A stretch of 20,000 nucleotides of DNA from IMG/VR virus record IMGVR_UViG_3300025659_000005, one strand, 5' to 3'. Made by a program: the position numbers and the translations under genes. Each line of letters begins with the position of its first letter. Positions within the stretch are counted from its first letter, which is position 1. This DNA is from an uncultured virus (IMG/VR IMGVR_UViG_3300025659_000005). Its lineage: Duplodnaviria > Heunggongvirae > Uroviricota > Caudoviricetes. The notes beneath the pieces were generated by a model that searched no databases, was not told the DNA's origin, and was given only the letters and a program-made list of their open reading frames with translations. Positions 317 through 19,912 of the stretch are shown here, piece after piece.

Positions 317-330
317 TATTATTTCTATAT
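317..330 (-). promoter_or_regulatory. Conserved 14-bp intergenic motif, copy 1 (minus strand ATATAGAAATAATA), putative viral promoter
   Basis: Identical 14-mer at 317, 5195, 14583 and 19899, each between a terminator-like hairpin and a start codon. Confidence 0.7.
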
Positions 331-352
331 AAAAACAGAGAAAATATAAATT

Positions 353-376
353 ACCCGACTGCCGAAGCAGCCGGGT
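353..376 (-). terminator. Intrinsic terminator-like hairpin with C(UUCG)G tetraloop
   Basis: Minus strand ACCCGGCUGC-UUCG-GCAGUCGGGU (10 bp, one G-U) followed by a U-rich tract, just after the stop at 389. Confidence 0.8.
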
Positions 377-388
377 CTTTGTGATGAT

Positions 389-601
389 TTATTCGTAATC
401 ATGAATATTTTTTCTTGAAAACACAAAATCTTCAAAAGCACCATTTGGACTTTCTGGACTATCTGGATTGTCTTCACTTGGATCTTGATTTCTAGCAAAA
501 GATGCCATAAGATCCTTTTCAGGAGTTAGAGATAAATTAATTACAAAATCCCCAATTCTAATTTCGCTTTCTTCATTTTCTTCAATGTCTAATTCTTTCA
601 T
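389..601 (-). CDS. Small acidic hypothetical protein
   Basis: 70 aa; ATGA overlap with the radical SAM stop; GGAGG SD upstream. Confidence 0.7.
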   Translation of the reverse strand: MKELDIEENEESEIRIGDFVINLSLTPEKDLMASFARNQDPSEDNPDSPESPNGAFEDFVFSRKNIHDYE

Positions 602-1341
602 TGGGCCTCCTCTAATGATTTATGAATCATATACTTTTTACCATAATGATTCAATTTTTTCTCAACCTTCTCTTTGACTTCTTTCCAGTTTATTGTTTTT
701 TGGTGTTTGTTATAATTCAATTTACCAACACCATAAAAATCTGTGAATTCATGAGTATTATCGATAACATCTAATGCTTCTTGAAGATCAATAATTGGCT
801 CTAAACTTAACCAAGTTTTAATGTTTCTTTTTTTGGCTCTTCTTAGATTTTCAATCCTTTGTTTGGGGGAAGCTGCAAATGGTTCCCATTCTTTTTGTAA
901 ATCTTCATTTAACATAACTAAAGTAATACCGAATTCGTTTTCTTGAACTTGAGACAAAAGATCAAAATCTCTTTGAGCTAAATCTTCTCCTTTTGTAAGT
1001 ATTCGAACAGGAAAATCAAACGAATTTAATAATTTAATTGATGTTCGTGTTAGTTTTAGTTCTTCCTCTAGTGGTTGATAAGGATCACTAGTGAATGACA
1101 TAAGAACTTGAGATTTTTCGAATTCATCATTCTTTTCAATCAATTCTAAGTCTCTTATTAATCTCGTAATAATATCCTTTTTTGGTTTAATTGTTCCGTT
1201 AAAATTTTCTCTAGTGATTTTACAAACACCAGGGACAAAGCAGTACTTACAACCATGATTACAACCTATATAAAGATTGAGCGCAAGATCTGCATATTCT
1301 TTAGCAGAACCTTTTGGTTCATATATCACTCTATTTGGCAT
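598..1341 (-). CDS. Radical SAM protein, spore-photoproduct-lyase-like family
   Basis: CxxxCxxC motif (LNLYIGCNHGCKYCF) plus SDPYQPLE, ILTK and WLSLEP motifs typical of SPL-like radical SAM proteins. Confidence 0.85.
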   Translation of the reverse strand: MPNRVIYEPKGSAKEYADLALNLYIGCNHGCKYCFVPGVCKITRENFNGTIKPKKDIITRLIRDLELIEKNDEFEKSQVLMSFTSDPYQPLEEELKLTRTSIKLLNSFDFPVRILTKGEDLAQRDFDLLSQVQENEFGITLVMLNEDLQKEWEPFAASPKQRIENLRRAKKRNIKTWLSLEPIIDLQEALDVIDNTHEFTDFYGVGKLNYNKHQKTINWKEVKEKVEKKLNHYGKKYMIHKSLEEAQ

Positions 1342-2053
1342 TTGATTTTTCCTTCCACAAGAGATTTCTCCCTTTAGTATAAGTTATATTTAATGGATCA
1401 TGTGGTTTCTTTATAAAGATAACTGTACCCATTTGAGTTTTACCATGTTTATAAGGATACCCTTGTGGGTATATAGACCAATGATCTGGTATCCAATATT
1501 CTTTTAATAATATGTCGAATATATCACTTATTTGAAACTCTGATTTTTCTGAAAAAATATATGGATTTTTTAATACAAAATTACTAATAAGTAGTAATTC
1601 GTTTTTAACTCCATTATCTATAGTTTTCATAATTTTCTTAAGATAATCAGATCCATATTTTGGTTGCATTACACCATCATAATTAATAATTGATGGGTTG
1701 AATTGTTTGCCTATTATTCTTTCGCAAATAGTTTCAAGGAAATCTCCATGAATCCATTTAATGTGTGGATAATATTTCGCATTAGTTTTAATCACTTTTT
1801 CTTCTCGATCAACTCCGTAGAATTGATCTGGGTGAATTAGGTTGGAATTAACCAAATGCCCTAATTCACCCACTATAGAAGAAGTTCGAGTATAATGCGC
1901 TCCACACATTGTCCAATACTCTGAGTTTTCAGGAATTGATAACCTTCTAAATACTTTACGATATATTTTAATTATCGTTTTATATCTAGCTTCCACTTTT
2001 ATATCATCATCCCAAGGACTACTATGTACATAATTAGGTTGTGTATTGCGCAT
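1331..2053 (-). CDS. Putative class I SAM-dependent methyltransferase-like protein
   Basis: Rossmann-like motif order YWTMCG ... FYGVDRE ... WIHGDF ... IINYD; overlaps the radical SAM start by 11 nt. Confidence 0.55.
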   Translation of the reverse strand: MRNTQPNYVHSSPWDDDIKVEARYKTIIKIYRKVFRRLSIPENSEYWTMCGAHYTRTSSIVGELGHLVNSNLIHPDQFYGVDREEKVIKTNAKYYPHIKWIHGDFLETICERIIGKQFNPSIINYDGVMQPKYGSDYLKKIMKTIDNGVKNELLLISNFVLKNPYIFSEKSEFQISDIFDILLKEYWIPDHWSIYPQGYPYKHGKTQMGTVIFIKKPHDPLNITYTKGRNLLWKEKSNAK

Positions 2054-2074
2054 TATTTAAACCCTCAATTAATA

Positions 2075-5000
2075 TTATCTAAGGATATGTTGAAATAATT
2101 CTTTCTTTTTGTATATTCGATTGACTAATCCATAATATCCATTCTTTTTTAACCATGTAGCTGGTGGTAATTTTCCACCATTGTCTTTAGCAAGAATCTC
2201 TGCTATTTCTAACCAATCCTCAAAAGATTTACTAGGATTAACCATAAAATCTCTATCAATATGTGAAAATGATTTTTTGTTTAAAGAAAGATAAACTACT
2301 AATCTTTTGTGTCCATTCTCTCTTAACCATTTAGCTGGTGGTAATTTTCCACCATTGTCTTTAGCTAACTTCTCGGCTATTTCGATCCATTCATCTGAAG
2401 GTTTGTGACAATAATCTCTTTTAATATGTTTGAATGATTTTTTATTTGCGTATATAATACGAATTAATGTATTATAACCATTTGTTTTTAACCATTTAGC
2501 TGGTGGCAATTTTCCACCATTGTCTTTAGCTAACTTCTCGGCTATTTCGATCCATTCATCCAGAGATTTAAGATTATTATCATTTCTTTTAATATGAGAA
2601 AATGTATCTCTATTTGATATTATACATTGATATAACTTACGATAACCATTTGTTTTCAACCAACTAAGTGATGGTAATTTTCCACCATTGTCTTTAGCTA
2701 ACTTCTCGGCTATTTCGATCCATTCATCCAGAGATTTACACGGATCATTAATAAAATCTCTATCAATATGTGAAAATGATTTTTTGTTTATACAAAGATG
2801 GTTTACTAATCTTCCGTACCCATTCTTTCTTAACCATTTAACTGGTGGTAATTTTCCACCATTGTCTTTAGCTAACTTCTCGGCTATTTCGATCCATTCA
2901 TCCAGAGATTTACACGGATCATTAATAAAATCTCTATCAATATGTGAAAATGATTTTTTGTTTAAATGGTAAAGTAAATTTGAATACCCATTTTCTATCA
3001 ACCATGTAGCTGGTGGCAATTTTCCACCATTGTCTTTAACTAGATTCTCGGCTATTTTAAGCCATTTTTCTGGAGGCATAGAATCATATTTTCTTTTAAT
3101 ATGATCAAACATTTTCTTATGTTTACTATACAAGAGAGCAGTTAACCCCATATAACCATTTCTTTTTAACCAAATATATGATTGTAATTTTCCACCATTA
3201 TCTTTAGCTAACTTCTCTGCAATTTTAACCCAATCCTCTGGTGAATTTCTTTCTTTATATAAATTTTCTTTAAGAATATGTTTAAATGAATTTTTATATT
3301 TATACAAACAAATTTCTAATCCATTATACCCATTCTCTCTTAACCATTTAGATGGTGGTAATTTTCCACCATTTTCTTCAGTTAATTTCTCAGCTATTTG
3401 TACCCATTCTTCTATAGATTTTCTTTCTCCCTTAATAACATCTCTAAATTCTTGAAATGTTTTTGATGTACATGTATTAGTTCCAAAAATTCTTAAATCT
3501 TCAAAGATGTCATTCAACCAAATTTTATCAAAATCTTCGATAAAATAATTTGAATTATTTTTAGAATAATCAATTGATTTAATAATATGTTTTTGATTGT
3601 GCATTTTTCTAAAAACTAAACCGATGTGATTAATGATTTGGTCTTGATTTTTAATTATGTTCTCTGATGTTAATAAACATTTGATCCATTGTTTAACATC
3701 TTGAGCAGATGGATCTTCTGAAACAGATTTCATAACTATTAGTTTTTTAATTATGTTCTCCAATAATTTTGCTCTTTCATCATCATCTGGAAATATTTCC
3801 TCTAGAGGATTAATATATAACTCTCTTCTATTATTTGATTTTAATTTTGTTGGGTATTTAATTGGTTCAATAATGTCTTGTAACAATAAAGATGTTGCTA
3901 GAGCATTGAAACTTTTACTTAAATGTATTCGCCTTTCTTCTTCGTTTTTAAATTTACTTTCAAAAGGAAGAAAACAGTAATATATTATTGATTTCTTATT
4001 AAAGAAATCTCTCCACAATCTACCGAAACGTTGATGTGTTATTCTTAAAGTATTTGAAGGTGCTAAATCAAGACATTGTTCTGCATGAACCCAATCTGAT
4101 CCTTCATCAAATATTTTAAGAGTTAGTATCACATCAACATGTTTAGCATCTCTATTATCAAGGAGTATTTCTTTTCTCTTATCTCTACCGTTGGTTTCAA
4201 TAAGATCAAGAATTTTACAATCATGCCACTCTTCTTTGATAGTTTTAATAAGTTTATCTTTAAATTTATTCTTATTACTATCATTCATAAGATGACCAAC
4301 ATAAGGACAGAAAATTATGCTCTTTTTGTGTCCTAATTTAAATACTTTCTTAACTTCATCAAATATTTCATATTGTTTGTATATAACAAAATTAAAAGTA
4401 AAATCTTCAATATACTTAATATTTTCTTCCCAATGTTTATCTAGAGGAAGAAAATGCTTATCAAATGTATCTAGAATTTCTTTAGGTATAATAGAATTAC
4501 TATCACCACGATATGGTGTAGCTGTTACTAACCAAAGAGAACTATCAGATTTATTTTTAAAAATATGATTGACCATACTTCCAATTCTATTTGATGTTTC
4601 ATTATCCTCATACATTATATGATGAGCTTCATCAATTACGATTGTAGTATTATCAAATATATCATTAAATTTTGATACTTTTGAATATGTTTGAGCTAAA
4701 GTAGAATGTGTAACAATAGCCACACGATTTTCAATACCAGGTTCAAATTCTTTCTTTTTAAGAAATTTAGTTAAGTATTTGATTTTTTGAAGGTTAGATT
4801 TCTTGCAAAGATCATGAAAACAATCCCAATTAATTTGTGTACCATCATCATATTGAAGAATCATTTTTCCAAAAGATTTTGCAATAAATGTTTGAGGTAC
4901 AGCTATAACAACTTTCATGTTTGGATTATTTTTCAATCTATCAGCCATAACAAAAGCAACATTAATAGATTTACCTGATCCAGGTGGTTGTATCAGTTGA

Positions 5001-5146
5001 AAATATTTTGAATTTCGATTTTCTTCAAAAACTTCTCTTTGTTGGTTCCTCTGTGTGATTATTTCAAAATCTTCATTTTGATCTATTTTTATATCTACAG
5101 GTTTAATTTTATCAATGTGTCTTCCGAAAGCTCTAAAAATAGTCAT
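2075..5146 (-). CDS. Superfamily 2 (DExH, restriction-Res-like) helicase with C-terminal array of 8 tandem ~57-aa repeats
   Basis: Walker A PPGSGKS, IVIDEAHH, motif III TATPYRGD, motif V FDEGSD, motif VI QRFGRLWR; SD AAGGAG; repeats with WxxIAExLxxxNGGKL. Confidence 0.9.
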   Translation of the reverse strand: MTIFRAFGRHIDKIKPVDIKIDQNEDFEIITQRNQQREVFEENRNSKYFQLIQPPGSGKSINVAFVMADRLKNNPNMKVVIAVPQTFIAKSFGKMILQYDDGTQINWDCFHDLCKKSNLQKIKYLTKFLKKKEFEPGIENRVAIVTHSTLAQTYSKVSKFNDIFDNTTIVIDEAHHIMYEDNETSNRIGSMVNHIFKNKSDSSLWLVTATPYRGDSNSIIPKEILDTFDKHFLPLDKHWEENIKYIEDFTFNFVIYKQYEIFDEVKKVFKLGHKKSIIFCPYVGHLMNDSNKNKFKDKLIKTIKEEWHDCKILDLIETNGRDKRKEILLDNRDAKHVDVILTLKIFDEGSDWVHAEQCLDLAPSNTLRITHQRFGRLWRDFFNKKSIIYYCFLPFESKFKNEEERRIHLSKSFNALATSLLLQDIIEPIKYPTKLKSNNRRELYINPLEEIFPDDDERAKLLENIIKKLIVMKSVSEDPSAQDVKQWIKCLLTSENIIKNQDQIINHIGLVFRKMHNQKHIIKSIDYSKNNSNYFIEDFDKIWLNDIFEDLRIFGTNTCTSKTFQEFRDVIKGERKSIEEWVQIAEKLTEENGGKLPPSKWLRENGYNGLEICLYKYKNSFKHILKENLYKERNSPEDWVKIAEKLAKDNGGKLQSYIWLKRNGYMGLTALLYSKHKKMFDHIKRKYDSMPPEKWLKIAENLVKDNGGKLPPATWLIENGYSNLLYHLNKKSFSHIDRDFINDPCKSLDEWIEIAEKLAKDNGGKLPPVKWLRKNGYGRLVNHLCINKKSFSHIDRDFINDPCKSLDEWIEIAEKLAKDNGGKLPSLSWLKTNGYRKLYQCIISNRDTFSHIKRNDNNLKSLDEWIEIAEKLAKDNGGKLPPAKWLKTNGYNTLIRIIYANKKSFKHIKRDYCHKPSDEWIEIAEKLAKDNGGKLPPAKWLRENGHKRLVVYLSLNKKSFSHIDRDFMVNPSKSFEDWLEIAEILAKDNGGKLPPATWLKKNGYYGLVNRIYKKKELFQHILR
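2078..3421 (-). repeat. Coding tandem repeat array, 8 units of about 165-175 bp
   Basis: NGGKL motif occurs 8 times; 2672-2790 and 2846-2964 are identical over 119 bp (174-bp period). Confidence 0.95.
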
Positions 5147-5194
5147 ACTTTCTCCTTTAATTTAAAAATAAATTTAAGCAAATTACTATTATCT

Positions 5195-5208
5195 TATTAT
5201 TTCTATAT
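5195..5208 (-). promoter_or_regulatory. Conserved 14-bp motif, copy 2, upstream of the helicase gene
   Basis: tattatttctatat on the + strand, 48 nt from the helicase ATG. Confidence 0.7.
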
Positions 5209-5229
5209 TAAAACAAAGAAAATATAAAT

Positions 5230-5259
5230 TATCCCTAGCTACCGAAGTAGCTAAGGATA
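5230..5259 (-). terminator. Intrinsic terminator-like hairpin with C(UUCG)G tetraloop
   Basis: Minus strand UAUCCUUAGCUAC-UUCG-GUAGCUAGGGAUA (13 bp, one U-G) followed by a U-rich tract. Confidence 0.8.
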
Positions 5260-5264
5260 TTAGA

Positions 5265-5477
5265 TTATTTTAGGTTAAGATTTACATACTGAGATGTTAT
5301 TTTTAAGAGATTTTCATAATCTCCACTCATAGCTTCATCTCTATATTTATTAAGATACTCTTCATCTGCTCCCTCATTAAAGAGAGATTTACAAGTTTTA
5401 CCAATTATTACGAAAGCGTTTCCGTCTTCACCATCTAAATCTATTTCAATTTCTGGTTTTTCGTTTGGTGCTTTCAT
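5265..5477 (-). CDS. Small phage-type hypothetical protein (DGNAF...SGDY motif); start re-called to 5477
   Basis: AGGAG SD just upstream of ATG 5477 (MKAPNEK); the longer 5567 start overlaps the upstream gene. Confidence 0.75.
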   Translation of the reverse strand: MKAPNEKPEIEIDLDGEDGNAFVIIGKTCKSLFNEGADEEYLNKYRDEAMSGDYENLLKITSQYVNLNLK

Positions 5478-5487
5478 GAATCTCCTA

Positions 5488-5868
5488 TTACTCATATAAA
5501 TGTGATGATTTATGTCTGCTACTATCAACACTATCAAAATCATAAAATGCGTTTGATACTGATGCAAAACAAGTAGGACATCGAAATCTAAAAGGTTCTC
5601 TTAATTTTTTATTACATTTAACACAACGTCTACCATTAAATTTACCAAGAATTTCTTTTGGTGATTTACGTAAAACATCTTTAAATGGTATTTTTCTTTG
5701 GTAGTTTCTAGATCTTTCTAAAATTTTTAATCGTTTTTTCTCTTGACATTCTTCTTTTTCACATGCTGTTCGTCGCCACCAATTAGTTAGATTTCTTGGA
5801 ATTTTGTCATTACAAAATTCACAAAAATTATCTGGTTGATTGTTTGCTTTATTCTTAGATTTTGACAA
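5488..5868 (-). CDS. Cys-rich putative zinc-finger protein
   Basis: CEFC, CEKEEC, CVKC and CPTC motifs; TTG start with AGGAG SD. Confidence 0.7.
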   Translation of the reverse strand: MSKSKNKANNQPDNFCEFCNDKIPRNLTNWWRRTACEKEECQEKKRLKILERSRNYQRKIPFKDVLRKSPKEILGKFNGRRCVKCNKKLREPFRFRCPTCFASVSNAFYDFDSVDSSRHKSSHLYE

Positions 5869-5877
5869 TTATTTCTC

Positions 5878-6598
5878 CTATTCATCATTTTCATTTATTC
5901 TAGTAATAAATTCAGTTACTGCTTGAATGATTGCAGACTTTTCAAAATATGTTGTTGTACAAAGAAATCTTTCAATTTCTTCTTCTGGAATTATATAATC
6001 ATTTTCTTTTACTTCATCACAAACCTCTAACAATTTTTCATCTTGAATTTTTTCATTAAGTTTATTTATTTGAGCATCGACCTTACTTGCTTTTTCATAA
6101 AAGTCAGATCTTTTCTTCTTGAGTTTGATCATCTCATCGGTATCTTCAACTTTTTCTTTTGCTAGTTTATATAAAATATCTTTAGAATGACTGTAATCTG
6201 ATTGGTGTTTTTCATTTTTAACTTTATCATATTGGTTTTTGAATACTTCATATGTTTTATTTAATAGTTCTTTTGCTTCATCAGGACTATTAACCATTGA
6301 GTTTCCAGGCTCAAGAATAATAGATTTTCTACAAACAAGTATAGGAATGATTTTTTTAGACTTTTTATCAATTCTTGTTGATAGTTTAGCGTCAGCTGTT
6401 GCACCACAATTATTATGTTTATCCGATATTATAAAATTATGGTTATAATATTTAATAAATATATCATATATACCTTTTGGAATATCGAAAACATATTCTT
6501 TTATATAATTTTCTTTTTGGTATTTATTATTTTTTTACCTTTGAAAGAATAGTTACTTAAAAATAATCAATATCTTTCTGTGTGTAAAATGACTTCAT
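5878..6598 (-). pseudogene. Hypothetical coiled-coil protein with apparent 5' frameshifts (pseudogene or sequencing error)
   Basis: The 5878-6297 frame stays open up to 6534; an SD-preceded ATG at 6598 joins it only if one base is added in each of two homopolymer runs. Confidence 0.5.
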
Positions 6599-6624
6599 AC
6601 TATTTATCTCCTTTATTACTAGAA

Positions 6625-6792
6625 TTATAAGTACTGTGTGTATTTATCAAGAATTGAAACAACTAAGTTATGACCTATACCATAAACGTCCATAATTTCA
6701 AACTCTGACATGCCTAACATATACCCATTAATAACACCTTCTAATATTTCTGGAAGAATGTAAGCAGTATCAGTATCTATAGAATGACCCAT
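6625..6792 (-). CDS. Small hypothetical protein (55 aa, MGHSIDTDTAYILPEILEG...), not in the ORF track
   Basis: Manually translated; AAGGAG SD; directly follows the topoisomerase gene. Confidence 0.65.
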   Translation of the reverse strand: MGHSIDTDTAYILPEILEGVINGYMLGMSEFEIMDVYGIGHNLVVSILDKYTQYL

Positions 6793-6800
6793 AATACTCC

Positions 6801-8150
6801 TTAAATATTAGAACTACAAAAATTACAAATTAGAGCGTAACAATCATTTACGTTATTACTTATTTTCAATTTAATATCTTTTATATTTTTATCATTCTCT
6901 TGAATATTAACATTATGTTCGATTAATGATTTGATACTTTTGGTTGTACATACGTTTTTAATATCTTCATTAGAGATAGTTTTTTCGACCAACATGAATT
7001 GATCTTGATCTTGATAATAATCTTCAGTCTTAATCTTATAATTTTTAAGAGCAAAGATTTTAATAATTTCATCAATAGATTTTACAGTTGGGTGATTTCT
7101 TAATATTTCACGAATGATTAAAATAATTTCGTTAGTGAACTTCTTATCGATATGTTTGATACATTCATTAATAAGACTAAATTTAACAATCTCTACATAA
7201 TACTCATAACACCTGAGTAAGATATCATCAACACCTTCTTGCTTAACAGACCCATCATTTTCACAAATATATATGATAAAATTAATGTTTTTGATTAGGT
7301 GTTTCTTATATATATATTTATAAAATGTTTGTAGATCTTCTCTTTTAGTTGGTTTAACACTAACATCAATTGTTGCACCAGAATAACATTCACAGTGTAA
7401 TCTATCGTCATCTTTTAAAGATGCAAATGTCGTTTGTGGTACTCTTCCTAAGATTCTTAATTCTTTATTTTTAGAAACACAATTAGGAATAATTGTTAGA
7501 GTACCAGAGCCATTAGTTAAAATCTTTTCTGCTTGAATATCATCTCGTTTAATAGAACAACCGTCTTTAGTTAGATTTGGATATATTATGATTTTATCTA
7601 ATTCATCTTCAGTTATCAAATATTTTAATCTTTTTGCTAGATCACTTAATTTGTATCTTGGAATAATTGTTCGGTGTGCAGCTATACCCATATAAATATC
7701 ACCATCACCAATTAATCCTATTGGTATAGGTGATGGTATAAATAAAGGTTCGTTTTCATATTCATATTCATCCCAAGGAACAAGATTAATATATTTAAAA
7801 CAAAATTCATCAACCCATTTTTTTAGTTTAGCTTCAGTATATCTTTCTGCACTAGGGTTAGCATCATCTAATCCAGGTGTTCCAAAATTTCCTTGATTGT
7901 CTACAAATCCTTGTTTATAAAGAGTTATTAGTGCTCCATATGCAGCTAATGTTCCATGTGGATGATAAGTACCAGTAGCATAACCAGTAATCTTTGAACA
8001 CTTAGTAAATTTTTTAGAAGCAATATCATGCATGCTTAGTAATAACCGTCTATAAACAGGTGTCAAACAATCTACAGGATTAGGAATCATTCTAAAACGA
8101 GAAATATATTTGAAATATTCAGTATAAAAAATTGGAATAACTTTTTCCAT
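6801..8150 (-). CDS. Type IIA DNA topoisomerase breakage-reunion subunit (GyrA/ParC/T4 gp52-like)
   Basis: RMIPNPVDCLTPVYRRLL, YHPHG, QGNFG and SAERYTE (catalytic RY) motifs; 449 aa, too short for a C-terminal pinwheel domain. Confidence 0.9.
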   Translation of the reverse strand: MEKVIPIFYTEYFKYISRFRMIPNPVDCLTPVYRRLLLSMHDIASKKFTKCSKITGYATGTYHPHGTLAAYGALITLYKQGFVDNQGNFGTPGLDDANPSAERYTEAKLKKWVDEFCFKYINLVPWDEYEYENEPLFIPSPIPIGLIGDGDIYMGIAAHRTIIPRYKLSDLAKRLKYLITEDELDKIIIYPNLTKDGCSIKRDDIQAEKILTNGSGTLTIIPNCVSKNKELRILGRVPQTTFASLKDDDRLHCECYSGATIDVSVKPTKREDLQTFYKYIYKKHLIKNINFIIYICENDGSVKQEGVDDILLRCYEYYVEIVKFSLINECIKHIDKKFTNEIILIIREILRNHPTVKSIDEIIKIFALKNYKIKTEDYYQDQDQFMLVEKTISNEDIKNVCTTKSIKSLIEHNVNIQENDKNIKDIKLKISNNVNDCYALICNFCSSNI

Positions 8151-8332
8151 TAGTCAGAATCCCTCGCTATTTTGGCTAGATCCAACATTTCTTGTTCGAG
8201 TATTTTGAAATCACCTGGCTCATAAGAATACACTGGAGATCTTTGTTTATCTATAGTATTATTCATACTTATCATCGCACATCTTCTGGTAATCAATGCT
8301 TCCAACTTAATTTTTATTTCTAGTTCTTTCAA
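8150..8332 (-). CDS. Hypothetical protein
   Basis: 60 aa, TTG start after GGAGG; stop overlaps the topoisomerase start. Confidence 0.6.
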   Translation of the reverse strand: MKELEIKIKLEALITRRCAMISMNNTIDKQRSPVYSYEPGDFKILEQEMLDLAKIARDSD

Positions 8333-8335
8333 TTG

Positions 8336-9166
8336 TTATTCCTCCATAAGTCGTTGTCTTAAAACTATATTTTCCAATTCTTTTACACCACCAAGTTGAT
8401 CGAATACAGGAATAAATATATTAAAAAATGAATTAAAATCTGGCAAACTAATTGATATTGTTTTATGTACAAGATTAGCAATACTTAAACTGATTGATTC
8501 TCGATTAGGTTTTCTTATTGTTAAGAATTTATTCATAACATATGACTTATTTAATTTCATATCATCTTCAACAAATCTACACATACTCCTTAGAGTGTCG
8601 TATCCTTTCGTTGAATCATAATCAATTATGTTTTTAATATACTTCTTAAATCTATACAATGTATTAAAATCATTTTTTATGCGTATATTTGGTAGAATTT
8701 TATCCGCATACAGTTCAAAGAATGTGAATCGATTAATCATTCGATTCTGTGCTTTGATAAATTTATCTGAACCTTCTTCAATTACGTTATAATAATTTGG
8801 TCTACCATAATTTACACTAGCAGTATGTAGATCCATATTACTATTATATTGATACAGTAAATAAATATCTTTTTGGTCATATGTAAATCGTAAACATGTT
8901 TTTAATACAGCATTATCACTGTTATAATAGAAATTATCATTAGAATCATAAACATCAACTTTGATTGAATATTGTTCACTTGCAAACTCATCATGTTGAA
9001 CAAGTCGCTGTTCTTTATTAATTTTTACAAATTGAAAAGTAGTTTCGGTGTAACCAGAATACAGATTTTTGAGTACATATTTATCATTATAAAAATATGT
9101 TAGCAAAGATAATATTTCATAGTTCTTATGTTTATTATTCTCTAGTGTGATGCTCTTTTGACTCAT
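8336..9166 (-). CDS. Hypothetical protein
   Basis: 276-aa ORF with GGAG SD, overlapping the primase end. Confidence 0.75.
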   Translation of the reverse strand: MSQKSITLENNKHKNYEILSLLTYFYNDKYVLKNLYSGYTETTFQFVKINKEQRLVQHDEFASEQYSIKVDVYDSNDNFYYNSDNAVLKTCLRFTYDQKDIYLLYQYNSNMDLHTASVNYGRPNYYNVIEEGSDKFIKAQNRMINRFTFFELYADKILPNIRIKNDFNTLYRFKKYIKNIIDYDSTKGYDTLRSMCRFVEDDMKLNKSYVMNKFLTIRKPNRESISLSIANLVHKTISISLPDFNSFFNIFIPVFDQLGGVKELENIVLRQRLMEE

Positions 9167-10142
9167 ACTTAGTCTCCCAATCTATTTTTACTACTGCTGG
9201 AAAATCGGCAACATCATTACCGATTAAAGGTTTAAACGCATTAATCCAGATCTTGCCGTTATAAATTTGTATTATTTTCTTTAACATCAATAAAATCTTT
9301 CTACTTTTATTATAATGATCACTATCGAAAATAATGTTAATTTCCAAATCATCAATTAAATAGTACATAATAATTAAACGTTCTAGGTTGTTGACATAAT
9401 TTTTACCATTAATACTGATAAAAATATTGTCTTTGAATAGGTCGTTATATAAATATAAACTGATTACATCAAATGGTCCTTCGCAGATAGTAATTTTGTT
9501 AATGTTGTTATGGATGTTTTGAAAATAGTATAAGTTGCTTGTGTTCGTATTAACTATGTATCTTTGATTATGTGATACATTGTTATCTGTGTGTCTTAAT
9601 AAAACGTTTTCCCCAATATGATTCGTGAATCTACACATCAATATACTATTCTTATATAGTGATGGAGATAGTAGAAATGTTGATGGATCTACGTCTGGTC
9701 CTAATCTCTTATTAATATAATTTCTATAATTAATGTAGTGATTATAATAATTCTTTTTGAAATTTAGAGTGTATTTTAATAATTCTTTCTTTAAGTGACT
9801 AAAACGTGGCGCGAGATTTGTTTGATTACGCAACCGAAAATAATCTTTAGTAAAGTTAATTTTGATAAAACTTGATATGTATTTTAGAACATCTTGATCA
9901 TCGAATCCAGTTTGTAGTAATAGACTTAACAAGGTACCACTACTATTACATCTAAAACAACTAAAAACTGGCATGGTTGTTGATATATACAAGTGTCCGT
10001 GATTTAAAGCTTTCTTTCTTAATGCATCATCACAGAACGGACAATGTATTATTATTTCTCCTTGAGGTATCACACGGAACATGTTCGGAGATATTTGTTT
10101 TAGATGTTCTAGCACCGGTGGAATTTGATTTACATCAAACAT
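9135..10142 (-). CDS. DNA primase (Zn finger + TOPRIM, DnaG/T4 gp61-like)
   Basis: CPFCDD...HLY...FSCFRC Zn finger; TOPRIM motifs ICEGPFD and IFDSD. Confidence 0.85.
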   Translation of the reverse strand: MFDVNQIPPVLEHLKQISPNMFRVIPQGEIIIHCPFCDDALRKKALNHGHLYISTTMPVFSCFRCNSSGTLLSLLLQTGFDDQDVLKYISSFIKINFTKDYFRLRNQTNLAPRFSHLKKELLKYTLNFKKNYYNHYINYRNYINKRLGPDVDPSTFLLSPSLYKNSILMCRFTNHIGENVLLRHTDNNVSHNQRYIVNTNTSNLYYFQNIHNNINKITICEGPFDVISLYLYNDLFKDNIFISINGKNYVNNLERLIIMYYLIDDLEINIIFDSDHYNKSRKILLMLKKIIQIYNGKIWINAFKPLIGNDVADFPAVVKIDWETKYESKEHHTRE

Positions 10143-14582: not shown

Positions 14583-14596
14583 TATTATTTCTATAT
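14583..14596 (-). promoter_or_regulatory. Conserved 14-bp motif, copy 3
   Basis: tattatttctatat, 57 nt from ATG 14525. Confidence 0.7.
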
Positions 14597-15077: not shown

Positions 15078-15512
15078 CTAGTTTTTAATGTATGTATAAG
15101 ACCCACTATTATTTTCAGTCTCAAACATCTTTATACGAATTTTATAAAAATTATCAAATTTTATATCTTTAAAAAATTCTAATAATAGATCTAGAAAGTG
15201 TTTACACATGTTCTCGACAGTTGTGTTAGTATATTCTTTTGGCATAATATATACTTTAGAACAATTAACATCAATAACAGTATCTCTAGTAATGATTACA
15301 GAGTGATCAATAAATGAATCAATTAATTCTTTTTGAAATGTTTTTAATTCTCCAAAATCAATTATGAAACCATTTCGATCTAATTCTTCACTAGAAATTT
15401 TAACATATAATTTATATGAATGACCATGTATAGTTGAGCATGGATGGTTTTCTCCTAATCCTTTTAATACATGTGCTGCTTCAAATGTAAATTTCTTTTC
15501 AATTTCGTACAA
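15078..15512 (-). CDS. queD: 6-carboxy-5,6,7,8-tetrahydropterin synthase
   Basis: FEAAHxL, CxxIHGHSY, IDFG, DH, TxEN and ET motifs; adjacent to queC; TTG start. Confidence 0.92.
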   Translation of the reverse strand: MYEIEKKFTFEAAHVLKGLGENHPCSTIHGHSYKLYVKISSEELDRNGFIIDFGELKTFQKELIDSFIDHSVIITRDTVIDVNCSKVYIMPKEYTNTTVENMCKHFLDLLLEFFKDIKFDNFYKIRIKMFETENNSGSYTYIKN

Positions 15513-15527
15513 TTTATACTCCTGTTT

Positions 15528-16199
15528 TTATTCATATTCAATTGGATCTTTAACATTATTTAATTTAAATGCTTCAAGACGCTCAACACATGATCCACAA
15601 ACACCACAAGATCTTTCTTGATCTTTGTAACATGTACGTGTAAGATGATATGGAACTTCCAAATCAAGACCTTCTTGAACAATCTCAATTTTATCCATAT
15701 CAATTAATGGTGTGTAAACTTCAACACTTTTATCAGTTGACAAGTAGATACAAGAATCTAGTGCTTTTACAAATTCCTTACGACAATCTGGATAGATCTC
15801 ATGATCTCCCTTATGAACACCTAATGCAATTCTATTAAATCCAATACTTTCAGCATAACCGGCTAAAATACTAGCAAACATTAAATTTCTACCAGGTACT
15901 ACTGTTTGTGACATTGTTGCATCATTATAATGTCCTTCAGGTATTTCACCACCAGACAATAGTAAATTAGATTTAAGTAATTTTCCAACATTTCTTAAAT
16001 CTATTAAACTGTATTCTACATCATAATGTTTAGCAATTTTTTTTGCACTTTCAATTTCATATTTATTATGTTTAGATCCATATTCAAATCCGACACATCT
16101 AATACTGTCTGATTGATGAAATGATTGATCGAATAAAATGGCTAAAAGTGTAGTACTATCTAATCCTCCCGATAAAGCTACTACAAAACTATCTGACAT
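15528..16199 (-). CDS. queC: 7-cyano-7-deazaguanine (preQ0) synthase
   Basis: SGGLDS PP-loop, VPGRN, YPDCR and TRTCY...CGVCGSC Zn site. Confidence 0.95.
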   Translation of the reverse strand: MSDSFVVALSGGLDSTTLLAILFDQSFHQSDSIRCVGFEYGSKHNKYEIESAKKIAKHYDVEYSLIDLRNVGKLLKSNLLLSGGEIPEGHYNDATMSQTVVPGRNLMFASILAGYAESIGFNRIALGVHKGDHEIYPDCRKEFVKALDSCIYLSTDKSVEVYTPLIDMDKIEIVQEGLDLEVPYHLTRTCYKDQERSCGVCGSCVERLEAFKLNNVKDPIEYE

Positions 16200-19898: not shown

Positions 19899-19912
19899 TA
19901 TTATTTCTATAT
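19899..19912 (-). promoter_or_regulatory. Conserved 14-bp motif, copy 4
   Basis: tattatttctatat, 61 nt from ATG 19837. Confidence 0.7.

Follow-up and report, generated by a model that had tools for sequence, protein, structure and literature searches.

A motif-bounded operon of an uncultured virus that joins a repeat-bearing helicase, a methyltransferase-fold protein and a radical SAM enzyme

The window (the whole stretch of 20,000 nucleotides that was analysed) comes from an uncultured marine virus and contains a compact operon of four co-oriented genes, which according to the ORF calls runs from 5146 to 389 on the minus strand. A hairpin followed by a 14-base promoter-like motif (5259-5195) precedes the operon, and a UUCG hairpin (376-353) closes it. 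The genes for the helicase and for a 240-aa protein (p240) are separated by 21 nt, p240 and the radical SAM gene overlap by 11 nt, and the radical SAM gene and the gene for a small acidic protein overlap by 4 nt. The original prediction had described a self-contained four-gene unit with exactly this spacing, starting at the motif at 5195-5208 and ending at the UUCG hairpin at 353-376; the ORF coordinates agree, the motif and the hairpin are found in place, and the unit is indeed a bounded operon within a virus-like contig. Its features are:

5230..5259, minus strand: terminator-like hairpin closing the preceding transcription unit (13 bp, UUCG loop, -19.8 kcal/mol, z -6.1)
5195..5229, minus strand: T-rich stretch and the invariant promoter-like 14-mer ATATAGAAATAATA (5208-5195), which lies 48 nt ahead of the helicase start codon
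5146..2075, minus strand: helicase, 1023 aa
3917..5071, minus strand: helicase motor core, about aa 26-410 (Pfam matches, helicase motifs)
3416..3916, minus strand: middle region or linker, aa 411-577, free of family matches; relatives conserve it in front of their repeats
2078..3415, minus strand: eight tandem 49-58-aa repeats, consensus xEEWIEIAEKLAKDNGGKLPPAKWLKxNGY...F.HI
2053..1331, minus strand: p240, 240 aa, unnamed family, predicted class I SAM-dependent methyltransferase fold
1341..598, minus strand: radical SAM enzyme, 247 aa, spore photoproduct lyase (SPL)-like, CxxxCxxC at C27/C31/C34
601..389, minus strand: small acidic protein, 70 aa, in ATGA overlap with the radical SAM stop
353..376, minus strand: terminator-like hairpin closing the unit (10 bp, UUCG loop, -19.7 kcal/mol, z -5.5)
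317..330, minus strand: next copy of the promoter-like 14-mer, start of the following unit (motif match)

The small acidic protein (pI 4.1; 19 D+E versus 6 K+R) has a sequence match among the related loci only in L008, which is the window's own contig copy, and by this comparison it is lineage-specific and not conserved in sequence. The grouping of four genes thus holds for the three larger ones, homologues of which co-occur elsewhere, and not for the acidic protein.

The motif ATATAGAAATAATA has four exact copies in the window (317-330, 5195-5208, 14583-14596 and 19899-19912), all of which are on the coding strand and intergenic, and the conservation around it continues upstream into the T-rich stretch. 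When up to two mismatches were allowed, seven matches were found versus 3.1 +/- 1.7 in shuffled sequences; this looser count is unremarkable because 7 of 200 shuffles also reached seven. A strong hairpin precedes three of the four copies, the third hairpin being located at 14644-14615 on the minus strand (-14.6 kcal/mol, z -4.9), while the region of the fourth motif folds no better than its own shuffles (z -1.1). The hairpin at 5230..5259 would be the first half of a putative composite terminator-promoter element. The exact 14-mer also brackets the homologous unit in other viral contigs, namely at 5356 and 9546 in L003, where it flanks ORFs at 5414-9466, and at 4337 and 8664 in L015; the version with helicase, p240 and a DUF5131-like protein is among the bracketed units, and the motif in addition precedes units with topoisomerase, primase, QueC and QueD. 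One contig of a DNA run joins 330 to 5194, but with only 21 letters on its short side it is too weak to be counted as a sign of recombination at the motif.

This layout resembles the PeSLs of T4-like phages (PMC4122927), motifs that combine a terminator with an early promoter: behind a stem-loop stands a conserved promoter-like sequence, and copies of this element recur along the genome on either side of cassettes that differ between related phages. In the present case, a hairpin stands before three of four motifs, and the motif brackets different radical SAM genes in L003 and L015. It should be noted, however, that PeSLs belong to T4-like phages and that the topoisomerase subunit of the window's virus matches those of other phages at an identity of only 24-34%; the element described here would be a candidate for early-promoter activity and for recombination.

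The helicase matches the Pfam families DEAD (PF00270, 4.4e-10, 40.0 bits versus a cut-off of 26), ResIII (PF04851, 2.6e-9, 37.7 versus 22.5) and Helicase_C (PF00271, 3.1e-5, 24.6 versus 23.5), and motifs I, II, III and VI could be located (GSGKS 56-60, DEAH 172-175, TATP 208-211 and QRFGR 372-376). By these matches it is assigned to SF2 (DEAH/ResIII-type), and the families that it resembles are DNA translocases (ResIII, PbeA, a Dnd restriction enzyme, RapA and DpdE). The original prediction had seen no nuclease motif in it, and the family-profile searches likewise found no nuclease domain. The C-terminal array (period 174 nt, 7.6 copies in Tandem Repeats Finder) comprises eight repeats of 49-58 aa with a mean column identity of 67%. 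It occupies the position at which the fused relatives P0300 and P0305 carry helicase-associated (HA, PF03457) domains; nevertheless, the window's repeats gave no match to PF03457 at E <= 0.01 and a probability of 0.14 when their profile was aligned with the HA-bearing P0305 (hhalign), and they are therefore not classed as HA domains. In all three segments tested, dN/dS between repeats was below 1 (0.32, 0.60 and 0.84), and the array thus gives no sign of a rapidly evolving reading code. The helicase is basic, as is p240 (pI 9.2 for both).

For p240, four family libraries yielded nothing except one weak PHROGs match. Its predicted structure (pLDDT 91.2) has a Rossmann methyltransferase fold, and a Foldseek search of the PDB returned at least 500 matches at E <= 0.001 (best E 1.9e-6); among the matches listed, 50 of 50 were methyltransferases or methyltransferase-fold proteins. 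The structural neighbours (VIA Z 12.6-10.8, the top value over 185 residues) are mostly RNA and small-molecule methyltransferases, tied in score. The family has conserved residues at an acidic D82 at the end of strand 2 (D or E throughout), at D104 after strand 3 and at N124-x-D126 after strand 4, which we take to be the usual positions of SAM-binding motifs II, III and IV. On the basis of the model, p240 is assigned a class I SAM-dependent methyltransferase fold, in line with the earlier description of it as methyltransferase-like; a lack of a SAM-binding fold, named in advance as counting against that description, was not seen. C5-pyrimidine methyltransferases use a catalytic cysteine, and the wider p240 family has no invariant cysteine, which argues against such a mechanism.

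The p240 family comprises 665 clusters, seen only in viral and metagenomic DNA; two pattern scans, each covering one genome for every prokaryote species, did not find it. Membership in the TcmP family was defined as a match to NCBIfam TIGR04474 at or above 53 bits; p240 had no match to this model at E <= 0.1 and is thus ruled out as a TcmP member by sequence, and TIGR04474 had no match in six virus records either, four of which contain a p240 relative. As judged from sequence searches and the predicted structure, p240 represents a new, unnamed family with the class I methyltransferase fold.

The helicase and p240 are tightly associated in other genomes. In 19 of 23 unique related loci (unique p240 loci with at least 3 kb upstream), the N-terminal helicase domain lies upstream of p240 in the same orientation, and a helicase and/or repeat-protein match lies upstream in all 23, in the case of L017 as a 45-aa remnant only. 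Furthermore, the metagenomic protein P0300 (1068 aa) joins an SF2 core to three HA domains and, at residues 857-1066, a p240 domain in a single chain, its N-terminus being 27% identical to the helicase core (E 4e-29), and in P0305 HA domains are joined to a p240 domain. Since the two are neighbours in 19 of 23 loci and fused in P0300, they belong together, and helicase plus p240 is, on this genomic evidence, the conserved core of the unit. P0300 shares with the unit the order of SF2 motor, small helical tandem domains and methyltransferase-fold domain, and the window's helicase and p240 have homologues in its motor and its methyltransferase domain, respectively; P0300 differs in that the window's methyltransferase-like protein has a gene of its own, the repeats are not recognisable as HA domains, and a radical SAM enzyme is added. 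No experimental study of this helicase-HA repeat-methyltransferase class was found in the literature. In the Tunturiibacter phage Tunturi_5, a homologous helicase is accompanied by repeat proteins that are separate from it, and p240 is absent, and thus the motor also exists apart from the methyltransferase.

The third protein belongs to the radical SAM superfamily, as indicated by a match to PF04055 (1.5e-13, 51.7 bits versus a cut-off of 29.5) together with the CxxxCxxC motif. Its model (pLDDT 95.3) is closest to SPL among solved folds (4fhc_A, Z 19.4, rmsd 3.0 A over 225 of 247 residues), followed by the next radical SAM enzyme at Z 16.3, so that the predicted likeness to SPL is borne out by the fold; the CxxxCxxC motif is likewise shared with SPL. 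The enzyme nevertheless differs from SPL by its identity of only 14%, by a length about 120 residues below that of the SPL chain (368 residues), and by its viral context, whereas the context of SPL is sporulation. Its family profile gave no significant match to PDB chains of SPL (E 0.26-0.77), and it is therefore not counted as an SPL by sequence, although it is closest by fold. Matches to the PA0069 family NF033668 (3.9e-27, 95.2 bits versus a cut-off of 360), to Rv2578c NF038135 (64.2 versus 430 bits) and to mobile pair protein B TIGR04470 (62.4 versus 410 bits) were all below the curated cut-offs, which makes it a relative and not a member of these families. No match to DUF5131 (PF07505) was found at E <= 0.01, and the enzyme is not regarded as the DUF5131 partner of a TcmP pair; the protein in the same slot in L003 scores 28.8 bits against a cut-off of 28.9, the L005 homologue scores 20.8 bits, and some members of the family carry a precomputed PF07505 match.

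A radical SAM gene of any type adjoins p240 in 15 of the 27 loci with room for one (10 SPL-like, 3 DUF5131-like and 2 of a third type), and 12 of the 27 have none; the DUF5131-like protein fills the slot after p240 in L003 and L015. In the p240 tree, 18 of 18 radical-SAM-bearing rows fall within one clade of 25 rows (support 98/96), and outside that clade a radical SAM gene adjoins p240 in 0 of 6 loci with room. The radical SAM enzyme is, on this distribution, an accessory of one p240 clade, and its absence from 12 of 27 loci and from all six outside the clade indicates that the core works without it. The earlier view of a three-gene system found in other genomes thus stands in that homologues of the three larger genes occur together elsewhere and that helicase and p240 form a core, fused in P0300, and has to be narrowed with respect to the radical SAM gene.

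The explanation that we favour, albeit tentatively, is that the unit is an operon used early or in the replication phase by a large tailed virus that is uncultured, and that it encodes a motor-coupled nucleic-acid modification module, the substrate of which would probably be DNA. Gene order, operon boundaries, folds, co-occurrence and fusion are direct observations; beyond them, the SF2 helicase would translocate on nucleic acid, most likely double-stranded DNA, and the eight small helical repeats, if they bind DNA, would serve as an arm for binding, targeting or processivity. p240, which forms a subunit of its own in this virus and a fused domain in others, would work with the motor, bind SAM and transfer a methyl group or another group derived from SAM. 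One clade has in addition a radical SAM enzyme, SPL-like in this virus, which would most likely perform a second, radical reaction on that substrate or reverse or repair a by-product of the first step. The likely role would be to mark the viral DNA as self against host nucleases, or to act on the DNA of the host or of rivals. To our knowledge, the studied members of the SPL fold family work on pyrimidines within DNA.

The radical SAM protein could instead be an independent passenger, since loci with the core often lack one. It would then be a stand-alone anaerobic DNA-repair enzyme (SplB/SPL-type) riding in the operon, and the helicase-methyltransferase would have a job of its own, e.g. anti-restriction methylation. 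Genomes of archaea and bacteria contain related radical SAM genes, and so do gut phages, in which these genes occur without helicase or p240 and have SSB, ParB and hypothetical genes as neighbours (p240 had no match in the phage collection). COG1533 (SplB-type) genes are described in PMC8565304 as SOS-regulated DNA repair genes. Nevertheless, three radical SAM families share the slot next to p240, in one clade and in the same motif-bounded unit, and in the window the two genes overlap. This repeated, position-specific replacement makes a passenger hard to sustain, and we regard the alternative as unlikely.

A somewhat lower probability is given to a module that has RNA as its target (tRNA or rRNA of the host, or transcripts of the virus) and consists of a DExH RNA helicase and an RNA methyltransferase. 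SF2 DExH cores are also present in RNA helicases, and the best structural neighbours of p240 include RsmD-like enzymes, METTL16, KsgA/Erm, Trm1, Trm5 and TrmK. However, the helicase matches are to DNA translocases, the closest fold of the accessory radical SAM enzyme is a DNA enzyme, and the fused relatives carry HA domains, which reportedly bind DNA.

The TcmP/three-Cys-motif pair (TIGR04474 plus DUF5131) likewise places a methyltransferase-shaped protein beside an SPL-like or DUF5131-like radical SAM protein in mobile or viral DNA, and a virus-carried conflict system akin to it in function, which would mark or damage foreign DNA such as that of co-infecting viruses, might be considered, the more so as the helicase has weak PbeA and DpdE matches. 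We consider it improbable, because neither p240 nor the radical SAM protein matches a PADLOC model at E <= 0.1, p240 has no TIGR04474 match, the unit contains no nuclease or other effector, and the p240 family is missing from the prokaryote scans mentioned above. The window's pair differs from the TcmP pair in being tied to a repeat-bearing SF2 helicase, with which it is fused elsewhere, and in that its radical SAM member is optional. The parallel drawn in the original prediction thus survives in the DUF5131-like proteins of L003 and L015, and fails for p240, which is not TcmP by sequence.

Very improbable is a role of the radical SAM protein as the QueE (7-carboxy-7-deazaguanine synthase) missing beside QueD (15078-15512) and QueC (15528-16199), which would place the unit in 7-deazaguanine DNA modification: no further CxxxCxxC protein occurs in the window, and QueC and QueD recur in G001 (the viral contig of 285 kb on which L003 lies), but no QueE model matches it at E <= 0.1, QueE folds score Z 12.1, 9.7 and 9.5 versus 19.4 for SPL, G001 has a QueE-like gene of its own about 76 kb from the module, QueC belongs to another transcription unit in the window and lies at a distance of about 48 kb in G001, and no TGT/DpdA match was found in four related records.

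The motor-coupled modification module that we favour relates to uncharacterised methyltransferase-fold/radical-SAM pairs and to the helicase-repeat-methyltransferase enzymes. The Pseudomonas phage M6 offers a further comparison: its gp53 is an SPL-like radical SAM isomerase that, according to PMC8989533, acts on already replicated DNA, where it reshapes a thymidine modification within a hypermodification pathway of several enzymes. In contrast, the 5-hmdU kinase, amino-acid transferase and PLP enzyme of the M6 pathway are not seen in the unit, and the 17 phage records that the window's radical SAM protein matched do not include M6.

The DarB protein of phage P1 is a single very large virion protein and is not known to have a radical SAM partner. 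It is a methyltransferase plus SF2 helicase with anti-restriction function, presumed to protect phage DNA, and it resembles the unit in uniting the two functions that p240 and the helicase would have.

The four genes of the unit lie on the minus strand of an AT-rich window (G+C 25-31%) in which nearly every long open reading frame (ORF) has that orientation, and they are arranged as follows:

5146-2075, minus strand: helicase, 1023 aa
2053-1331, minus strand: p240, 240 aa
1341-598, minus strand: radical SAM (S-adenosylmethionine) protein, 247 aa
601-389, minus strand: small acidic protein, 70 aa

These ORF coordinates agree with the spacing of the original prediction, that is, a gap of 21 nt and then two overlaps, of 11 and 4 nt. 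The promoter-like 14-mer ATATAGAAATAATA occurs in four exact copies in the window, all of them intergenic and on the coding strand, and a stable hairpin precedes three of the four, with a UUCG loop in two of these hairpins. When up to two mismatches are allowed, seven matches are found, a number that 7 of 200 shuffles also attain, and therefore weight is placed on the exact, well-placed copies alone. The hairpins and the exact copies thus delimit a unit that spans from a hairpin-plus-motif element at 5259-5195 to a hairpin at 376-353, as originally predicted, and the next copy of the motif (330-317) comes after this end hairpin. In two other loci, L003 and L015, the homologous unit is bracketed by the identical 14-mer even though p240 is only about 50% identical there. 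The layout resembles the PeSLs of T4-like phages, which Comeau, Arbiol and Krisch (PMC4122927) describe as composite terminator/early-promoter motifs flanking shuffled cassettes; the topoisomerase subunit of the window virus matches other phages at only 24-34% identity, which does not mark it as T4-like.

Small cysteine-rich or zinc-ribbon-like ORFs, 66 and 126 aa long, are found in the flanking units at 54-254 and 5265-5868 (minus strand), together with a 100-aa phrog_1933 protein (5e-19). One contig of a DNA run joins position 330 to 5194, which amounts to loss of the whole unit between two motif copies, and several contigs of the same run diverge exactly at the motif or the hairpins. Because the short side of the join comprises only 21 letters, inside the repeated motif, this junction may be a repeat artefact and was left out of the evidence. 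The gene content of the window, which includes a topoisomerase II A-type subunit, a primase, an SMC/ABC-type ATPase, QueD and QueC, is taken to be viral; the related contigs come from a virus collection, and the clusters of p240 in a protein atlas belong mostly to tailed viruses. A radical SAM protein identical to that of the window carries the label 'archaeon' in one source.

The protein at the centre of the unit, p240, went unmatched in Pfam, NCBIfam and PADLOC and gave a single weak hit in PHROGs (phrog_9125, E 0.0035). Its predicted structure is nevertheless confident (pLDDT 91.2) and has the fold of a class I methyltransferase, so the SAM-binding fold on which the original prediction hinged is present. 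The conserved residues, among them D82, D104 and D126, occupy the customary sites of SAM-binding motifs II to IV, and no cysteine is invariant in the wider family. The fold singles out no target, with the nearest solved structures level at a Z of about 12. In the BFVD viral fold library, the matches were all generic methyltransferases (TM 0.33-0.55 relative to query length), and a PDB sequence search with the p240 profile gave nothing significant. The first search yielded 40 relatives, and a profile search 665 clusters at E ≤ 0.001. For one p240 cluster, the protein atlas lists Pfam PF28273 on 16%, and no match to PF28273 was seen in the analysis. By tblastn, p240 was not found in 50,697 GenBank phage records, nor did the single protein find anything in IMG/VR. 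In prokaryotes, with one genome per species, two pattern scans recovered no family member; they used short conserved patterns from a smaller alignment (A4), which distant members may escape.

The N-terminal 410 residues of the helicase form an SF2 DEAH/ResIII motor in which motifs I, II, III and VI are all present, with DEAH at residues 172-175, and its weaker family matches, all under the family cut-offs, are all to DNA translocases. The earlier impression that the helicase has no evident nuclease motif was borne out by a domain search, which found no nuclease domain; a PDB sequence search with the helicase gave nothing significant. The C-terminal 446 residues consist of eight tandem repeats, the variable positions of which are grouped at columns 22-23, 26-27, 31-32 and 34-36. 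There is no sign of positive selection on the repeats, with a dN/dS between them of 0.60 overall that stays below 1. A profile search found no match of the helicase-associated domain (HA, PF03457) in these repeats, and their assignment as HA domains was dropped, the repeat profile reaching an hhalign probability of only 0.14 against P0305, an HA-bearing metagenomic protein. In relatives of the helicase the motor is followed by arrays of HA, 'phage-integrase repeat', DUF4379 or other repeats. One protein on record, P0309, is identical to the window helicase over residues 1-420, yet has 968 instead of 1023 residues (window region 2078-3415); since the difference corresponds to about one repeat unit, it reflects either copy-number variation of the repeats or assembly collapse.

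A homologous helicase, gp100, is encoded by the 309-kb genome of the cultured soil phage Tunturiibacter phage Tunturi_5 (L056, 5088-8871), where motor and repeats reside on separate genes, gp100 being followed by the repeat proteins gp99 and gp98. The repeats resemble those of the window at 35% identity and have matches at 12 places in that genome. The next gene product, gp97, was considered as a p240 counterpart and is not p240-like, and a profile of the wider family (alignment A3, 39 sequences) found no p240 in Tunturi_5, whereas the positive controls G001 and G005 do match.

The co-occurrence of the genes, which the original prediction had proposed as a check, was examined in 43 unique p240 loci, including the window's own, after five duplicate pairs had been merged and three refetches of earlier contigs (L052-L054) left out. 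Of the 23 loci that extend for at least 3 kb upstream of p240, 19 have a helicase N-domain there; the remaining four show a match to a repeat protein, which in L017 is only a 45-aa remnant. Among the 27 loci that extend for at least 800 nt downstream, 15 have a radical SAM gene next to p240, namely an SPL-like gene (for spore photoproduct lyase) in 10 loci (in one of them between helicase and p240), a DUF5131-like gene in three and a MoaA/HxsC/viperin-like gene in two, once one gene further along. With an SPL-like gene in four shorter loci, 19 of the 43 carry a radical SAM gene. In a p240 tree of 38 rows, from which duplicates and the partial sequences L034 and L046-L049 were omitted and which was rooted at the midpoint only, the 18 rows that bear a radical SAM gene all group in a single 25-row clade (support 98/96), and the six loci with room that lie outside it lack such a gene. 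The lineages of L010 and L004, sisters in this tree, differ in whether they have one. The small acidic protein, in contrast, is a part of the window's unit that did not recur: it was matched only in the window's own contig, and among 14 loci examined, three others (L013, L018 and L025) have a small acidic ORF of unrelated sequence after the radical SAM gene, a weak pattern.

The motor and the p240 domain also occur in one polypeptide. In the 1068-aa metagenomic protein P0300, a motor with homology to the window helicase (27% identity over 398 aa, E 4e-29) precedes three HA domains and a C-terminal p240 domain, and P0305, the sequence of which is without an initial Met and possibly cut, combines HA domains with a p240 domain; these two are the only proteins of more than 300 aa among the 150 matches listed. 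We read the helicase and p240 as one enzyme system with the repeat array as its arm, and the nameless clusters of virus-borne p240 relatives gain both a methyltransferase shape and a tie to a repeat-bearing motor. Distant p240 relatives (L007 6262-7974, L041, L042, L029, L045, L046 and L051) stand behind proteins with other types of repeat, one of which reads KLG..L.NY...YDP.FD.KIRK.RPDWF; DUF4379 zinc-finger repeats precede the relative in L046, and W..W.DWLG repeats occur in four consecutive genes of L051. Downstream of p240-like genes, ORFs of about 405 aa (L007 9106-10332 and L038 3558-4775) resemble by eye IS200/IS605-type TnpB.

The radical SAM protein of the window has a PF04055 match and a CxxxCxxC motif at C27, C31 and C34, and is akin to the PA0069, Rv2578c and 'mobile pair B' families, with scores far under their cut-offs. 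A PDB sequence search gave nothing significant. The closest solved fold to its model (pLDDT 95.3) is spore photoproduct lyase (Z 19.4, rmsd 3.0 Å, 225 residues), followed by SuiB (Z 16.3); QueE reaches at most 12.1. With no QueE model matching at E ≤ 0.1 and a separate QueE-like gene on G001, the 285-kb viral contig that holds L003, an identity as QueE was rejected. Relatives are present in methanogen and bacterial genomes and, without p240 or the helicase, in gut phages. In gut Bacteroidales phages, as in Parabacteroides phage PDS1 (L002 4986-6497), the related gene lies between SSB and ASCH-domain genes. PF04055 matches are unusually many on two viral contigs, with 16 on the 207-kb contig of L005, including 12 at about 152-174 kb, and eight at about 7.7-17.8 kb on the 79-kb contig of L006.

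In our reading, the radical SAM enzyme is a later addition to the core pair, and other radical SAM types have replaced it at the same position. Such replacement argues, without proving it, that the enzyme works on what the core pair takes as substrate or releases as product and is no passenger. One clade, one slot and three unrelated radical SAM types would also constitute a natural experiment on what each enzyme adds. DNA is more likely than RNA as the substrate of the module, because the helicase matches are DNA translocases, the radical SAM fold is closest to a DNA enzyme, and the promoter motif is common to the unit and the replication genes. It is conceivable, if rather improbable, that the module modifies bases of viral DNA in a novel, two-step way. 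A translocase guided by the repeats would transport a new methyltransferase along the viral genome, and the radical SAM enzyme would next rebuild the methylated or a neighbouring pyrimidine; in related viruses, SPL-like, DUF5131-like and MoaA/viperin-like enzymes would write differing final marks on a common scaffold. Abundant marine and sediment viruses would then possess a modular, swappable DNA-hypermodification kit. Modified DNA would have a bearing on host-nuclease evasion by abundant ocean viruses and on how reliably such genomes can be sequenced, and the module could be a source of new enzymes for writing DNA marks.

Among the nearest described systems are the uncharacterised TcmP/DUF5131 pair, although p240 falls outside TcmP by sequence, helicase-HA-methyltransferase fusions, an architecture seen here in P0300, and gp53 of phage M6, an SPL-like radical SAM enzyme in thymidine hypermodification (PMC8989533). 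That paper presents gp53, in the authors' own assessment, as the first member of the radical SAM class for which installation of a DNA modification was demonstrated; known precedents are few. In the literature surveyed, mostly outside subscription journals and judged largely by title and abstract, no description of the module was found.

At 15078-16199 (minus strand), a QueD-like gene (144 aa) is adjacent to a QueC gene (223 aa), as in viral 7-deazaguanine pathways, and no QueE, FolE or TGT/DpdA was recognised within the window. The two genes are about 10 kb from the unit, in a separate transcription unit, and on G001 QueC, QueD, a Vut_1 family gene and the QueE-like gene are all distant from the module; in the window and G001, no support was found for a direct link of the module to these genes.

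Three RNA libraries yielded contigs that cover parts of each of the four genes, with identities of at least 95% and in nearly all cases of at least 99%. The matches indicate presence in the libraries and not transcription; such contigs reveal neither transcripts nor their starts and ends, the libraries may include DNA, and gaps in coverage are meaningless. The virus is common, as near-identical DNA is found in 14 DNA runs of marine or seawater origin, belonging to 13 studies; each run contains at least 75% of the unit's sampled words, and one of the runs may be the source.
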